From: a virus
Direction: 5' to 3' (one strand)
IMG/VR virus record: IMGVR_UViG_3300034159_000059
DNA: 17,442 nucleotides
The position numbers and the translations under genes are program-made. Below, piece after piece: positions 5,288 through 16,739 of this stretch; within the stretch, counting starts at the first letter, position 1; each line of letters begins with the position of its first letter. A model generated the notes under the pieces. The model ran no database searches. It was not told the origin of the DNA and saw only the letters and a list, made by a program, of their open reading frames with translations.

Positions 5288-5578
5288 ATGAAATACCTGA
5301 TCGGCAGAGCAACAGTCCTTCTTCAAGGACTGATCTTTTCCAAGGTCGAGGTCATGGCAGTTTCAGAGGACGAGCAGGGAGTGGTCTTCTTCGAGTACCG
5401 AGGAGACCTCATTCTGCTCGTTCCTCCAGAGTCTCGACCGCTCTTGATTGAAGGGTTCCCGTTCGAGACGAAGGTGGGAACTCTCCAACTCACCCCGTCC
5501 GCTCCTATGAGCGTTGCAGCACTGGCAGAGACTGGAAAGGTCGTAGCTCAACTCGTCTTCGGCAGGAGTACTACATGA
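5288..5578 (+). CDS. hypothetical protein (96 aa)
   Basis: ORF ending in ATGA overlap with next gene; weak SD at 5288, alternative start ATG5354 has an AAGGTCGAGG box. Confidence 0.45.
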   Translation: MKYLIGRATVLLQGLIFSKVEVMAVSEDEQGVVFFEYRGDLILLVPPESRPLLIEGFPFETKVGTLQLTPSAPMSVAALAETGKVVAQLVFGRSTT

Positions 5579-6018
5579 GGTCTTCTAAACTCACGACCGC
5601 GAACGTCGAAACCGTCTTCCAGAAGTGCCTCTTCCCCAAGGACCGGGCGGACTTCGACCACGCCATCGTGGTGGACGGCACGCAGGAGTGCTTCGCCTTC
5701 GAGGTGGAGAAGATCCAGGAGAACCGGGACCAGATTCACTCCATGCTCTCGGAGCTTCCGGAGTCGTTCATCGAAGGCGTCGGGGAAGGCGGGAGCTTCT
5801 TCCTGGCCGGCTTCGACCGGTACGGGAATGAGTGGGCGGCCCACCACGGGGAGATGGAGAAGCTGTTCGCGCTCGGCAAGGCGTCTGGAGACATCGAGGT
5901 GATCGTCGAGGATGGAGTCGGAGGTCTTCCCATCTTCCTGGTGACGATGGACTCGACCGAGAAGCTGGTTGGGAAGGGGTCTCACGCCTTCCACGAGCTG
6001 CGAGAAATTGGGGCCTAA
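5575..6018 (+). CDS. hypothetical protein (147 aa)
   Basis: ATG5575 overlaps the previous stop (ATGA); AGGAG 8 nt upstream; acidic protein. Confidence 0.65.
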   Translation: MRSSKLTTANVETVFQKCLFPKDRADFDHAIVVDGTQECFAFEVEKIQENRDQIHSMLSELPESFIEGVGEGGSFFLAGFDRYGNEWAAHHGEMEKLFALGKASGDIEVIVEDGVGGLPIFLVTMDSTEKLVGKGSHAFHELREIGA

Positions 6019-6686: not shown

Positions 6687-6692
6687 CAAGAA

Positions 6693-6727
6693 GAGGGTGC
6701 TGGGGACCTCCCCAGCACCCTCTTTCC
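6693..6727 (+). terminator. intrinsic terminator
   Basis: perfect 14-bp stem GAGGGTGCTGGGGA-cc-TCCCCAGCACCCTC followed by TTTCC. Confidence 0.8.
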
Positions 6728-6744
6728 ACAATGGGAGGACTATC

Positions 6745-7602
6745 ATGGCTACTCAGCAGACGGCTCCGGTTTCTCTACGAGGCAGGATTGCAGTCGTGGC
6801 TCCGACGTTTCTGTCTACGTTCCAGAATCGTATGGCTGCGCTTCTCAATGAGGAGAAGAATCCGGAGCACGTGCTGACCATGGACTCCATCACCGACGAG
6901 GTGGATGTTCAGACCCGGTTCCTGATGCGTATTCTCGCCAGGAAGCCGGCACCTCTGGCTCTCATCACCGTCTCTGTCCGTCCCACGCCCGAGATGATTC
7001 GTGCGTTCAGGGAAGCCCAGATCCCGGTGGTGTTGATCGACGAGGAGGCACCGGGAGCGGCAACGGTTGCGGCCGACAACTTCGTGGGTGGGTATCTCGC
7101 AGGAAGCCACCTGGCGAAGCTCGGTCGAAAGAGCGTGGCGATCATCTCTGGACGGACCGACGTGGCTGGCGGGTACAACGCCAAGCAGAGGGTCGAGGGA
7201 TTCCGCTCGGCTCTCGTGAAACAAGGTCTTCACATTCCTGACGGTGGGAAGTTCGAGGTCGAGCACTACACCGACAAGGAAGGAGAAGATCTCTCAGTGA
7301 TTCTCGCTTCCAGCAAGAAGTTCGACGGCGTGTTCGTGGCCGCCGGAGATTCTTGCGCACGAGGCATTCTACGAGGGGTTCGACGCGCAGGCGTGAACGT
7401 TCCCGATCAGATGGCGCTCGTCGGGTACGACGGCATGCTGGCCGCCGAAGTCTGCGCGGTACCTCTCACCACAGTGAAGCAACCCTTGCAGCAGATGGCT
7501 GCGGCTGCGATCCGGCTGGCCATCGCCGACCGGATGGAGACGCTGACGCACCCCAAGAAGATGGTCTACAAGCCCGAACTCATCGTGAGACGGTCAGCCT
7601 AG
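6745..7602 (+). CDS. LacI/GalR-family ligand-binding (PBP type-1) core domain protein lacking the HTH DNA-binding domain
   Basis: GGGAGG 6 nt before ATG6745. The C-terminal stretch DGVFVAAGDSCARGILRGVRRAGVNVPDQMALVGYDGMLAAEVCAVPLTTVKQPLQQMAAAAIRL aligns to the LacI core ([48 protein letters not shown]). The N-terminus RIAVVAPTFLSTFQNRMAALL aligns to the first strand/helix of the LacI core at about residue 60. No helix-turn-helix is encoded in this ORF or upstream of it. Confidence 0.75.
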   Translation: MATQQTAPVSLRGRIAVVAPTFLSTFQNRMAALLNEEKNPEHVLTMDSITDEVDVQTRFLMRILARKPAPLALITVSVRPTPEMIRAFREAQIPVVLIDEEAPGAATVAADNFVGGYLAGSHLAKLGRKSVAIISGRTDVAGGYNAKQRVEGFRSALVKQGLHIPDGGKFEVEHYTDKEGEDLSVILASSKKFDGVFVAAGDSCARGILRGVRRAGVNVPDQMALVGYDGMLAAEVCAVPLTTVKQPLQQMAAAAIRLAIADRMETLTHPKKMVYKPELIVRRSA

Positions 7603-7632
7603 TAGGTGGACGGTCCTCCCCGTCCGAAACAG

Positions 7633-7673
7633 AAGGGCCCGAGGCTACGACGCTCGGGCCCTTCGCTTTTTCA
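7633..7673 (+). terminator. intrinsic terminator
   Basis: perfect 12-bp stem GAAGGGCCCGAG-gctacgacg-CTCGGGCCCTTC followed by GCTTTTTC. Confidence 0.85.
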
Positions 7674-7705
7674 CATCCTAAGCCCAAACCCAGAAGAGGG
7701 AGAGC

Positions 7706-8806
7706 ATGATCACGGTATCGTACAAGCCCCTAGCTGCTGGCGAAGACCCGTGGGGACGGGTCATCGAGTCATTCATCGCCGGAGAGTTTCCGCAGGCTCA
7801 CAAGCACACGGAGAGCCGTCTCGACGCTGTCATGGAGGCCTTCCTGTCGACGAGGCAGCGTCGGTTGGGCCCCGTGCCTGGCGTGGAAGCACAGGCTGAG
7901 ATGCGGAAGGTCATCCGGCACTACATCGAGGCGAAGCTTCCCATTCCCGTCCTGATCCCCTTCGGCCCGAAGAAGCCCAAGGAGAGTGAGGGCATCGACG
8001 TCGCCGAGTTGGCGGCGTTGAAGGCTCTCGGATGTCTTCAGCGATCTGTCGTTCCGCACCACGAACCGGGGATGCACTTCCTGTTTCGCATGGAAGACCT
8101 TACCGGAAGGGTTCTGGAAGAGGGAACATCCGGTCTCTGGTCCGACATGTTCACGTACTGTCGGGACTTCAACCAACTCTCCGTGATCCTTGGGTACTCG
8201 GAGTTCATCGAAGTCGTGAAGGAGTCGGAACTCGGAAACCAGGACACCTTCTGGGCCGAGATGGCGAAGGCGCAGTCTGTTATGGAGACGTACCTGACGG
8301 AGAGTTGGAACTCTGAGTCTCCGGCCGACTGCGCGTCCTACCAGCCGCTCAAGGAGCTGGGGTTTGTCGGCATGGTGTCCCCCGCGCAGCGCGAGTTCTA
8401 CATGGACCGATACTCTCGGCTCTACCCGACACTCACAACGGACCAGCGCGTCACGCTGCTCGCGAAGTACCTCGCCTGCTCGCTCGTCCGTCGTAACCTC
8501 GGTATGACGGGAGCCAAGAAGGAGTGGGGCGGTCGCTGCCTGAGCCTGTCGTTCGCTCCACCGGCTCCGGACCAGGCCAACACTGCTGCGGCGAGGATCT
8601 ACTACCGAACGATCCCGCTCGACCACTCGAAGATCCACATGCCTCCGTGGCGCGCGAAAGGGATCTTGAAGTGCTCGGATGACAAGGTCCGATTCTCCAT
8701 GATCCCCTGGCAGGAGGTCGAGGCCGCGAATCTGTCTCCGGGGATGCTCATCGTGCAGTCGGGGAAGGATTGGGTTCCGGTGCGGGCGGACTACTTGCTG
8801 GAGTGA
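7706..8806 (+). CDS. hypothetical 366-aa protein; tentative resemblance to DIT1/PvcA (isonitrile synthase) family
   Basis: GAGGGAGAG before ATG7706; the largest ORF in the window. Local motifs PIPVLIPFGPKKPKES, PGMHFLFRMEDLTGRV and LSLSFAPPAPDQ...IHMPPWRAKG recall motifs I remember (possibly imperfectly) for IsnA/PvcA-type proteins, roughly (LPAFPAKSPN, PG..ICSDGRVF, RLSIHPQP...WLTPWHG). The match is recollection-based, not a search. Confidence 0.6.
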   Translation: MITVSYKPLAAGEDPWGRVIESFIAGEFPQAHKHTESRLDAVMEAFLSTRQRRLGPVPGVEAQAEMRKVIRHYIEAKLPIPVLIPFGPKKPKESEGIDVAELAALKALGCLQRSVVPHHEPGMHFLFRMEDLTGRVLEEGTSGLWSDMFTYCRDFNQLSVILGYSEFIEVVKESELGNQDTFWAEMAKAQSVMETYLTESWNSESPADCASYQPLKELGFVGMVSPAQREFYMDRYSRLYPTLTTDQRVTLLAKYLACSLVRRNLGMTGAKKEWGGRCLSLSFAPPAPDQANTAAARIYYRTIPLDHSKIHMPPWRAKGILKCSDDKVRFSMIPWQEVEAANLSPGMLIVQSGKDWVPVRADYLLE

Positions 8807-8827
8807 AACACAACGAGGAGAGAAGCC

Positions 8828-9271
8828 ATGGGTTGGGTTCCAAGCAAGGTGAAACTCTTGAAGGGGACTGAGAGAGTGTTGGTGAGAACTCTCCAGACGA
8901 CCACCAAGATGCAGCTCACGAAGGTCGAGGCAGTGGAGGACACGGGGCCGTTGGGAGACGTGGAGAGAAGGATCCGGCTCTGTCCGGACGTGGGGTATCC
9001 GGTCGTCCTGAAGGCGGAAGAGGAGATCTGGATCTTTCAGAGAGAGCAAGAGCCGAAGCCCGATACGGACCTCAAGGTAGGCGATGTGGTCCAGTTCACC
9101 AAGGAAGGAAAGGTGGAGGTCACCAAAACCAAAGAGAGGTCGGCCTACCAACTCGGTTGGGATGCTGGAATCGAGGCCGTCGAGAAGAGGGTCCTCGCCG
9201 CATCCATCACAGATGCCGTAGCCGTTCCGTGGTTGAAGAAGGTCTTCGCGGAGCTGAAAGAGCAAGGCTGA
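8828..9271 (+). CDS. hypothetical protein (147 aa)
   Basis: AGGAGAG 6 nt before ATG, 21 nt after previous stop (same operon); Lys/Glu/Val-rich, beta-rich look. Confidence 0.65.
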   Translation: MGWVPSKVKLLKGTERVLVRTLQTTTKMQLTKVEAVEDTGPLGDVERRIRLCPDVGYPVVLKAEEEIWIFQREQEPKPDTDLKVGDVVQFTKEGKVEVTKTKERSAYQLGWDAGIEAVEKRVLAASITDAVAVPWLKKVFAELKEQG

Positions 9272-9274
9272 GAA

Positions 9275-9306
9275 CATGGGCCCGGGAAACCGGGCCCATG
9301 TCTATT
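9275..9306. terminator. intrinsic terminator (between convergent genes)
   Basis: perfect 11-bp stem CATGGGCCCGG-GAAA-CCGGGCCCATG (GNRA-type loop) 3 nt after stop 9271; also lies 9 nt past the end of minus-strand gene 9315..9548. Confidence 0.75.
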
Positions 9307-15131: not shown

Positions 15132-15554
15132 ATGGGAAGTCCGGCATACGAACCGCTGACCGCCGAAGAGATAGAGCAGTTGCTTCCTCGCGTAATATCA
15201 GCGGCCTGGCGACGTCGTGAATTCCCCATCCCTGTGTTCGACTGTCATAGCTTCTCCAGTGGTCTCTATGGCATCCGAGTGCTCTTCGATGCCGGCATCG
15301 AGGAAGACGGTCAGAAGTGGGTGCACGTGTCCATTTCTCGTGAAGACCGTGAGCCCTCTTGGGAAGACTTGACCACGGTGAAGCGCCTCTTCCTAGGCGA
15401 CGAACGCTGGGCCTACCAAGTCATTCCGCCACAGAGCGAGTTCTACAACGTGGGACTGCCTGGACGCGGTCTACATGTCTTGCATCTCTGGTCGCCTCTC
15501 GACAACAAGCCCAGATTGCCCAACTTCCTCCAGGCCAGAGGAGGAACACTGTAG
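15132..15554 (+). CDS. hypothetical protein (140 aa)
   Basis: GAGGAGAG 4 nt before ATG15132; overlapped upstream by a 21-codon mini-ORF at 15094 (see findings). Confidence 0.6.
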   Translation: MGSPAYEPLTAEEIEQLLPRVISAAWRRREFPIPVFDCHSFSSGLYGIRVLFDAGIEEDGQKWVHVSISREDREPSWEDLTTVKRLFLGDERWAYQVIPPQSEFYNVGLPGRGLHVLHLWSPLDNKPRLPNFLQARGGTL

Positions 15555-15760: not shown

Positions 15761-16141
15761 ATGATCACAGATCAAGAAGTGGAGTTCCAGTTCACTGACT
15801 ACGGAGGCGAAGCCACTCACTTCTTCGGGATTCGCAAGCTGGGGTTTCTCGAAGAAGGCGGCTTCATCATCGTCGGGTACCTATCTCCCGCCGGCGCTCT
15901 CCGGAACACTCTCTCAACGAGCATCCCCATCAGCTCAACGGAGTACCGACAGAAGAATGCGACACTGACCAGGTACATGCGCAACCTGGACACTGCGATC
16001 GTCATCGACGACGACTGGGGCCACGCCTACGCCATCGTAGGCTCCAAGGAGTTCATCGATCAGGTAGTTGAGGACTGCATCAAGCATAAAGTTCCCAAGG
16101 ATCTATCCCTCCAACGCCTGCACGACTCAGGAGAGCTCTGA
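15761..16141 (+). CDS. hypothetical protein (126 aa), paralog of the next gene
   Basis: QEVEFQFTDY...HFFGIRKLGFLEEGGFIIVGY and DDDWGHAYAIVG align with QEVSFYLKYQ...HLVGFRKLGFEVSGHFIIEAF and ANDWGRVYTIRA of 16143..16739. Confidence 0.65.
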   Translation: MITDQEVEFQFTDYGGEATHFFGIRKLGFLEEGGFIIVGYLSPAGALRNTLSTSIPISSTEYRQKNATLTRYMRNLDTAIVIDDDWGHAYAIVGSKEFIDQVVEDCIKHKVPKDLSLQRLHDSGEL

Positions 16142-16142
16142 A

Positions 16143-16739
16143 ATGAGCATCAAGAACCAAGAGGTGTCGTTCTATCTCAAGTATCAAGAGTGGTTCCATG
16201 ACAAGCTTCAAGATGTCACCCAACACCTCGTCGGGTTCCGCAAACTAGGATTCGAGGTATCAGGCCACTTCATCATCGAGGCTTTCACAGTTCCGCCGTC
16301 CGAGCGAAGTGCGGGGTATGGTAACTACTACCATGACGTGGCGATCAGCGAACCGCTCTATCGACGCCACAAGCCGACGGGAACCTACTACGTGAGAGCT
16401 TCTGATGTGGAACTCTCCATCGCCAATGACTGGGGCAGGGTCTACACAATCAGAGCCCTGAAGATCCTCATCGACCTACTGGCGGCGGAGTGTGAGCGAT
16501 TCGAGATCCCTCAGAAAGCGGAGGTCTCCGTCAGTGTCGGCGACCTTCTCCGGGAGTCGTTCGAGGCTGCTCGTAAGACCGACAACGTCGTCTCCGTTCG
16601 CAGAGCTATGGACCCAAAGGAGCGAGGTCCTGGCATCGTCAAGCTCTTCCCCGAGCCCATGGTGATCAACTACGAGGCATGGCTCGACGAGCATGACCTC
16701 TTGCCTGATGCCGAGACGCATCTGGTTGGGAAACCATGA
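16143..16739 (+). CDS. hypothetical protein (198 aa), longer paralog of the previous gene
   Basis: AGGAGAG 8 nt before ATG16143, 1 nt after previous stop; shares its N-terminal half with 15761..16141, plus about 80 extra C-terminal aa. Confidence 0.65.
   Translation: MSIKNQEVSFYLKYQEWFHDKLQDVTQHLVGFRKLGFEVSGHFIIEAFTVPPSERSAGYGNYYHDVAISEPLYRRHKPTGTYYVRASDVELSIANDWGRVYTIRALKILIDLLAAECERFEIPQKAEVSVSVGDLLRESFEAARKTDNVVSVRRAMDPKERGPGIVKLFPEPMVINYEAWLDEHDLLPDAETHLVGKP

Follow-up and report, generated by a model that had tools for sequence, protein, structure and literature searches.

The question raised by this locus is whether a virus may encode an enzyme of isonitrile biosynthesis. The DNA analysed (hereafter the window) is a stretch of 17,442 nucleotides from the IMG/VR virus record IMGVR_UViG_3300034159_000059, and the gene under study codes for a protein of 366 residues:

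7706..8806, plus strand: gene of the PvcA-fold protein, 366 aa, from ATG 7706 to TGA 8806.

A first-pass annotation, made from the letters alone, had recognised in this protein three motifs reminiscent of the DIT1/PvcA isonitrile synthases, an enzyme family that includes IsnA and PvcA. The answer that emerged from the follow-up analysis is twofold. The 366-aa protein is a very distant relative of the bacterial and fungal isonitrile-making enzymes, but calling it an isonitrile synthase is not justified because the invariant polar residues R165, R245, H249 and H274 of these enzymes are not kept. From sequence, model and analogy it is considered, with a little more confidence than doubt, to be a stand-alone PvcA-fold enzyme with a remodelled pocket, belonging to a phage-restricted and deeply diverged sister of the DIT1/PvcA family.

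The evidence for this kinship comes from a large protein family. A word-indexed homologue search returned 7 relatives; with an exhaustive profile search the number rose to 646 cluster representatives (50% identity), of which 376 had E <= 1e-30. The 150 representatives listed are mostly about 350-385 aa long and nearly all of them align end to end. The family profile and all column conservation counts given below refer to these 150 sequences, which are mostly about 30% identical. When compared with all PDB sequences, the profile matched exactly three entries, all of them isonitrile synthases: 9dh4 (E 1.1e-6), 9dhm (1.3e-6) and PvcA 3e59 (5.1e-6). For the direct comparison, a word-indexed homologue search with a 9DH4 fragment gave fragments only, and seven full-length isonitrile synthases were drawn from plasmids of Streptomyces, Burkholderia, Hymenobacter, Bacillus, Embleya and Pseudonocardia. 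HHalign aligned the phage family with these seven enzymes with 96.4% probability and an E-value of 1.4e-9 over 242-261 columns, placing residues 54-325 against isonitrile synthase residues 33-283 of 313. By profile methods, the homology of the phage family covers the whole catalytic domain.

The Pfam family of these enzymes, PF05141, comprises 273 profile positions with a gathering threshold of 26.4 bits, and the four plasmid isonitrile synthases that were scanned as positive controls scored 123-268 bits over positions 1-272. Sub-threshold matches to PF05141 were obtained for six of the eight closest sequences, the close relatives scoring 11.5-22.4 bits over profile positions 3-121 only. One member (from locus L062) reached 28.1 bits, in the N-terminal half only, and was the sole individually scanned member above the threshold. 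Among 128 family members, 63 matched PF05141 at E <= 0.01 (best 1.1e-7) and no other Pfam family recurred. At the level of sequence profiles, the homology of the phage family to the DIT1/PvcA isonitrile synthases can be regarded as solid.

The predicted structure points in the same direction. A first AlphaFold2 (AF2) model built from 8 sequences was mediocre, with a predicted local distance difference test score (pLDDT) of 70.7, and was replaced by a model from the 150 sequences with a pLDDT of 96.5 and a predicted template modelling score (pTM) of 0.92. The modelled protein has the three-dimensional architecture of PvcA. The fold match to PvcA is full-length, the nearest folds outside the isonitrile synthases being the tyrosyl- and tryptophanyl-tRNA synthetases (TyrRS and TrpRS), and the viral structure library BFVD gave only remote matches to TyrRS and to cyclodipeptide synthases. 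As judged from the model, the whole PvcA architecture is shared: the core is Rossmann-like and related to class Ic aminoacyl-tRNA synthetases, a helical insertion is present, and beta hairpins are found at the C-terminal end. The whole length of the soluble protein is predicted to form one PvcA-like unit.

The counterparts of the isonitrile synthase motifs could be located in the gene from the HHalign columns:

7961..8008, plus strand: F86-E101, the loop after strand 1 and the helix cap, corresponding to the FPxKS lysine and the PDxxE Asp/Glu of isonitrile synthases.
8066..8098, plus strand: P121-G122, strand 2 and E130-D131, corresponding to the isonitrile synthase block PGAR..CSDG.
8156..8158, plus strand: Y151, invariant, corresponding to the isonitrile synthase tyrosine Y131.
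8540..8572, plus strand: LSLSFAPPAPD 279-289, the positional counterpart of RLSIHPQ.
8636..8653, plus strand: H311-M-P-P-W315-R316, the counterpart of W-x-T-P-W-H.

Residues K90 and D98 are found in all 150 sequences and E101 in 148; they are aligned with isonitrile synthase K68, D81 and E84. G122 is aligned with G105 of the PGA motif and Y151 with the invariant Y131. The N-terminal signature (FPxKS lysine, PDxxE, PGA, Tyr) is present as a whole, its five residues occurring in 148-150 of the sequences. Further along the protein, W315 (all 150) is aligned with W273 of TPWH, R301 with an Arg/His column of the isonitrile synthases and H311 (139 sequences) with W269. E130 and D131, conserved in 148 and 146 sequences respectively, were both left unaligned by HHalign; the CSDG aspartate D113 falls on G134 (a G/A column) by HHalign and on E130 by an ungapped count from the shared PG. 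Among the motifs named in the first-pass annotation, FGPKKP (86-91), LSLSFAPPAPD (279-289) and HMPPW (311-315) were read correctly and the PG-x8-GRV spacing was not, as 11 residues rather than 8 separate PG (121-122) from GRV (134-136). In the profile alignment, all three blocks coincide with FPxKS, PGAR..CSDG and RLSIHPQ / TPWH of the isonitrile synthases.

The C-terminal signature (the Arg and His of RLSIHPQ, the His of TPWH, R165 and D203) is lacking, P250, P272 and W273 alone being retained. According to the alignment, the two C-terminal motif blocks are right in place but the residues that define an isonitrile synthase are exchanged. In the 150-sequence alignment, 5 columns are invariant and 24 nearly so (>=90%). 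Polar or aromatic residues occupy the majority of these columns, a pattern that speaks for strong constraint on the family at such positions and for selection on its function. The phage family has a near-invariant set of its own, namely R53, E130, D131, E173, G219-W220-x-G222, Y236, Y255, R262, Y300 and H311. At the alignment level, the isonitrile-synthase-specific C-terminal Arg and His residues are seen to be exchanged for R53, E173, Y236, Y255, R262, Y300, H311 and R316. Besides the modelled fold, roughly half of the conserved positions of the putative pocket are shared with isonitrile synthases; half of the likely active site is changed.

The first-pass annotation had pointed out that no oxygenase accompanies the gene. 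This was borne out. Neither a TauD/IsnB-type oxygenase (PF02668) nor a cytochrome P450 or a major facilitator superfamily (MFS) protein was found in the Pfam annotations of about 36 kb of the 109-kb source contig or of the other annotated loci, and TauD, P450 and MFS queries gave only noise by tblastn in 293 kb. No adjacent or fused Fe(II)/2-oxoglutarate dioxygenase, as in the IsnA/IsnB and PvcA/PvcB pathways, was present in these sequences. An all-against-all comparison of open reading frames (ORFs) from 20 independent loci, at two stringencies, retrieved the family gene as the only common gene: the PvcA-like gene stands alone. The lack of an IsnB partner, which had been thought unusual, is less so than assumed since a single-domain architecture lacking the dioxygenase is recognised among isonitrile synthases (PMC5974471). 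Plasmid examples adjoin a P450 gene, or an MFS efflux pump gene, or have no oxygenase or P450 gene within 2.5 kb. Another plasmid isonitrile synthase, on the Hymenobacter swuensis plasmid pHsw1 (L024 1700-3334), is an unusual regulator-enzyme fusion of 544 aa, in which an N-terminal TetR_N DNA-binding domain precedes the isonitrile synthase; a TauD/TfdA dioxygenase gene follows.

The family was found on 14 IMG/VR viral contigs of 17-223 kb, and other members lie on contigs of 72, 110 and 454 kb. The exact 366-aa protein is encoded by the 109-kb contig and by a second one of the 0.2-1 Mb class. In the 36 kb or so of the source contig that were covered, a long same-strand array of small unknown genes follows a divergent Cro/CI-type helix-turn-helix (HTH) gene. 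The contig also codes for a GH108 endolysin with a PG_binding_3 domain, an Acb2/Tad1-hairpin protein, a Phage_phiTE_072 protein and a GGDEF protein. With this gene content the contig is identified as that of a phage, and the phage location given in the first-pass annotation is supported. Neither the whole window (megablast) nor three family members (tblastn) matched any of 50,697 GenBank phage records. Two motif-based scans of one genome for each of 185,579 prokaryotic species gave 54 motif matches, leading to one full copy and one fragment. The full copy (L062 2307-3368), 46% identical to family member P0013, lies on a 28-kb contig of a metagenome-assembled genome of Candidatus Paceibacterota, and this is probably a phage contig binned into a genome of the candidate phyla radiation. 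The scans rely on one motif, and absence from cellular genomes is suggested rather than proven. Overall, the family appears to be restricted to uncultivated, mostly large phages. The fold and the superfamily are already known; an extensive branch of this kind, apparently confined to phages, without partners and with half of the signature swapped, has no entry in Pfam or PHROGs. In the literature searched, no paper was found that describes this phage family or connects phages with isonitrile chemistry.

The reaction catalysed by IsnA joins an amino acid and ribulose-5-phosphate. By analogy with IsnA/PvcA, the retained N-terminal site of the phage protein may bind a phosphorylated carbonyl compound, e.g. 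ribulose-5-phosphate, and could condense this carbonyl partner with a primary amine, an imine being formed without any cofactor. The exchanged C-terminal residues would then accommodate another amine substrate and/or direct the intermediate to another fate. The product might be an isonitrile or some other adduct; an N-formyl product, like the one proposed for yeast Dit1, is a further candidate. The protein would be an active, cofactor-independent enzyme working alone on abundant host metabolites. Its gene has a putative ribosome-binding site of its own, is separated by a terminator-like hairpin from a LacI-like gene and lies in a long same-strand array, probably of small accessory genes, in a large phage.

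Several observations weigh against this reading. Taken alone, the 366-aa protein gave no match in direct scans of Pfam, PHROGs, NCBIfam, PADLOC or the PDB sequences, and when the single sequence was compared with the isonitrile synthase profile an E-value of 0.0098 was obtained over 61 columns. The case for homology is built on the family profile and on a structure that is predicted, not solved. At the position of H274, which is His in all seven isonitrile synthases, 135 of the 150 phage sequences carry an arginine (R316 here). The arginine R245 of RLSIHPQ corresponds to a variable Q/E/D/K column (S280 here), the histidine H249 of the same motif to a V/A/T column (A284 here) and R165 to A/V/S; D203 is unaligned, and D119 is kept as Asp/Glu in 80 sequences only. 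If the lost R165, D203, R245, H249 and H274 are catalytic, the chemistry may be unrelated. No publication was found that assigns the catalytic residues of isonitrile synthases, and we infer which half serves which step; the functional weight given to the Arg/His substitutions is likewise an interpretation of the alignment. The genomic context holds nothing that indicates a substrate or a product.

The remodelled stand-alone enzyme therefore has to be compared with other explanations of the same data. The protein could be a genuine L-Tyr/L-Trp isonitrile synthase producing, from the amino acid and ribulose-5-phosphate, an alpha-isocyano amino acid; without a decarboxylating oxygenase, this product would be released unchanged or hydrolysed to the N-formyl amino acid. 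The full-length match to the PvcA fold and the profile homology agree with such an activity, as do the conserved lysine, D-x-x-E, PG, Tyr and Trp positions. TyrRS and TrpRS as nearest other folds would fit an aromatic amino-acid pocket, and isonitrile synthases of single-domain type without IsnB do exist (PMC5974471; plasmid examples). The PF05141 scan recommended in the first-pass annotation is however negative for the 366-aa protein itself, with no match even at E <= 10 and hence no full-profile score above the gathering threshold. The threshold of NF045653 (L-tyrosine isonitrile synthase PvcA equivalog, >=600 bits) is missed as well, without any match for the protein and with 10.9 bits for the best relative (P0007). 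The invariant Arg/His pair of RLSIHPQ is gone, as is the TPWH histidine. Moreover, the bona fide PF05141 member Dit1 of yeast reportedly makes N-formyl-tyrosine and no isocyanide (PMC7345447), so that the PvcA scaffold does not dictate an isonitrile product. A genuine isonitrile synthase is therefore held to be unlikely. The assignment to DIT1/PvcA survives at the superfamily level, where profile homology carries it, and fails for canonical membership, given the missing PF05141 match and the lost invariant residues.

Less likely still is the recruitment of the scaffold for an unrelated chemistry on a nucleotide, a tRNA or an aminoacyl-tRNA, as in class I aminoacyl-tRNA synthetases, cyclodipeptide synthases and nucleotidyltransferases. 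During takeover or counter-defence, such a protein might for instance alter a host molecule or use it up. The HIGH and KMSKS motifs together with a closest structural match to class I aminoacyl-tRNA synthetases or cyclodipeptide synthases, by which a member of these groups would be recognised, were not found. A further candidate is a non-catalytic ligand binder, a pseudoenzyme or sponge, by which some metabolite or signal of the host would be sequestered. Such a role would agree with the half-lost isonitrile synthase signature; sponges are common among phage products, and a protein with the Acb2/Tad1 hairpin is encoded on the same contig. This is nonetheless improbable, as the invariance of K90, D98, E101 and Y151 at shared positions is more typical of catalysis and 366 aa is large for a sponge. 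Finally, the 366-aa ORF might not be the true gene, the coding sequence being an antisense ORF of 502 aa (7769-9277, minus strand) that overlaps it and exceeds its length, or the region being non-coding. On the plus strand, the 366-aa frame is the longest ORF. The GC content at third codon positions (GC3) is 0.80 in the plus frame, against 0.78 at first positions (GC1) and 0.59 at third positions in the antisense frame. These antisense values are the mirror image expected in a genome of 57-60% GC, which points to the plus frame as the coding one. The product of the plus frame is conserved among homologues at 26-90% identity and has hundreds of full-length homologues. Antisense matches between loci concern only short ORFs inside the family gene, the antisense product has no Pfam match, and the antisense ORF covers two separate plus-strand genes. 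It is not regarded as a gene; GC-rich codon bias accounts for its presence. The chance that the 366-aa ORF is not the gene is negligible and this explanation can be taken as effectively refuted already: the ORF is a real gene, as the GC3 of 0.80 and the many full-length homologues confirm.

The expression signals and the gene that follows are:

7696..7702, plus strand: Shine-Dalgarno-like sequence GAGGGAG just 5' of ATG 7706, read from the sequence.
8828..9271, plus strand: downstream ORF of 147 aa with its own Shine-Dalgarno sequence, starting 21 nt past the stop codon of the PvcA-like gene (ORF call and sequence).

The 147-aa ORF is probably co-transcribed with the PvcA-like gene. It has no match in Pfam, PHROG or PADLOC and is not conserved beside other family members in the 20-locus ORF comparison.

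Upstream of the PvcA-like gene, the following features were identified:

6690..6725: hairpin with a perfect 16-nt inverted repeat (6691-6724), just 5' of the Shine-Dalgarno sequence and ATG 6745 of the LacI-like gene (sequence repeat).
6745..7602, plus strand: HTH-less ligand-binding core of LacI/RbsR type, 285 aa, likely start ATG 6745 (Peripla_BP_3/4/1 matches, gene call).
7632..7671, plus strand: terminator-like hairpin with a 12-bp GC-rich stem followed by GCTTTTT (sequence, RNA fold, inverted repeat).

The existence of an HTH-less LacI-type gene upstream of the 366-aa ORF was correctly perceived in the first-pass annotation: besides the Peripla_BP_3/4/1 matches, the protein aligns with the RbsR profile over positions 63-327 only, and no HTH, including the HTH_LacI domain of LacI/GalR regulators, was found in the LacI-like gene or in the ORF upstream of it. 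The hairpin at 7632-7671 has a folding energy of -27.5 kcal/mol (z -4.64), and none of 200 shuffled sequences folded as well. The tentative link between this sugar-sensor-like protein and the putative enzyme had to be abandoned because the terminator-like hairpin separates the two genes and no related LacI-like neighbour occurs in any of the 19 other family loci compared. A LacI-sensor link, or any other fixed partner, was ruled out by the conserved-neighbour searches at two stringencies. The LacI-like gene is bracketed by two strong hairpins and looks like an insulated single-gene cassette (moron). As a phage ligand-binding core without a DNA-binding domain, its product could act as a small-molecule binder.

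Some other features of the window and its contig were recorded. Apart from the genes described above, family signals were detected only in the ORFs at 450-872 (DUF6210), 943-1353 (DUF4262, weak), 5575-6018 (phrog_26039) and 15132-15554 (DUF7694); the remaining window ORFs that were scanned or annotated are ORFans. The adjacent ORFs 15761-16141 and 16068-16739 share a 55-nt direct repeat of 71% identity (15818-15872 and 16224-16278), a sign that they are diverged tandem paralogues. No tRNA, Rfam family or meaningful repeat was found in the window. The rightward array that holds the whole window is headed by the gene of a Cro/CI-type HTH_31 protein (L084 7963-8166; L084 and L083 denote pieces of the source contig). 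It is preceded by a gap of about 950 nt between the divergent arrays (L084 7008-7963, about 0.9-1.9 kb upstream of the window start), which is probably an early regulatory region. The leftward arm of the contig carries the GH108 endolysin gene (L084 537-1100) and that of the Acb2_Tad1_hairpin protein (PF24729, 73 aa, L084 2113-2334), the latter about 6.5 kb upstream of the window start and on the opposite strand. This hairpin is the fold of phage sponges directed against the defence systems CBASS and Thoeris. A GGDEF (diguanylate cyclase) protein of 294 aa is encoded some 7 kb beyond the end of the window (L083 17252-18136), with the gene of the Phage_phiTE_072 family protein nearby (L083 12471-13154). 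In two other loci (L020 13507-17116 and L021 9696-17104), the genes near the family gene code for ThyX, an adenylosuccinate-synthase homologue (possibly PurZ-like), a PNKP-like kinase/phosphatase, a T4-type RNA ligase 1, a DNA methylase and a sigma-70 factor of 449 aa; not one of these genes is conserved across loci.

What can be stated for phage biology is that an apparently phage-confined family of the PvcA fold, comprising hundreds of sequence clusters, is absent from Pfam, PHROGs, BFVD and 50,697 GenBank phage genomes. A bolder proposal is that large uncultivated phages use a stand-alone PvcA-fold enzyme during infection to turn amino acids and pentose phosphates of the host into a small molecule, either of isonitrile type or new in some other way. 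This is put forward tentatively and seems rather doubtful. If true, it would be the first virus-encoded member of isonitrile-type chemistry, and the swapped Arg/His set would represent a new reaction variant on the PvcA scaffold. The product might poison host enzymes via metal or haem binding, or interfere with defence. An active enzyme would bring new small-molecule chemistry into the biology of phage infection and would offer a natural active-site swap for the study of a poorly understood class of cofactor-free enzymes.

The comparison with known systems places the phage family at some distance from all of them. Cellular isonitrile synthases are parts of secondary-metabolite clusters. The known sources of the PF05141 type are bacteria, fungi and a small number of other eukaryotes (PMC5974471). 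In contrast to these enzymes of bacterial and fungal biosynthetic clusters, the phage family is found in phages, and never with a dioxygenase, P450 or non-ribosomal peptide synthetase partner in the loci examined. The phage protein is about 15% identical to PvcA (PDB 3E59), IsnA and 9DH4/9DHM, and its family stays at or below the Pfam threshold, matching the N-terminal half of the profile only. Yeast Dit1 resembles the phage protein in belonging to the same superfamily and in working without an IsnB-type dioxygenase; Dit1, however, counts among the canonical PF05141 members and has the P450 Dit2 as its partner, whereas the phage gene has no P450 nearby. The catalytic domains of the class Ic aminoacyl-tRNA synthetases TyrRS and TrpRS and the cyclodipeptide synthases are structural cousins of the phage protein. 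Compared with the DIT1/PvcA isonitrile synthases, the phage family is set apart by its own invariants R53, E130/D131, E173, GWxG, Y236, Y255, Y300 and H311.

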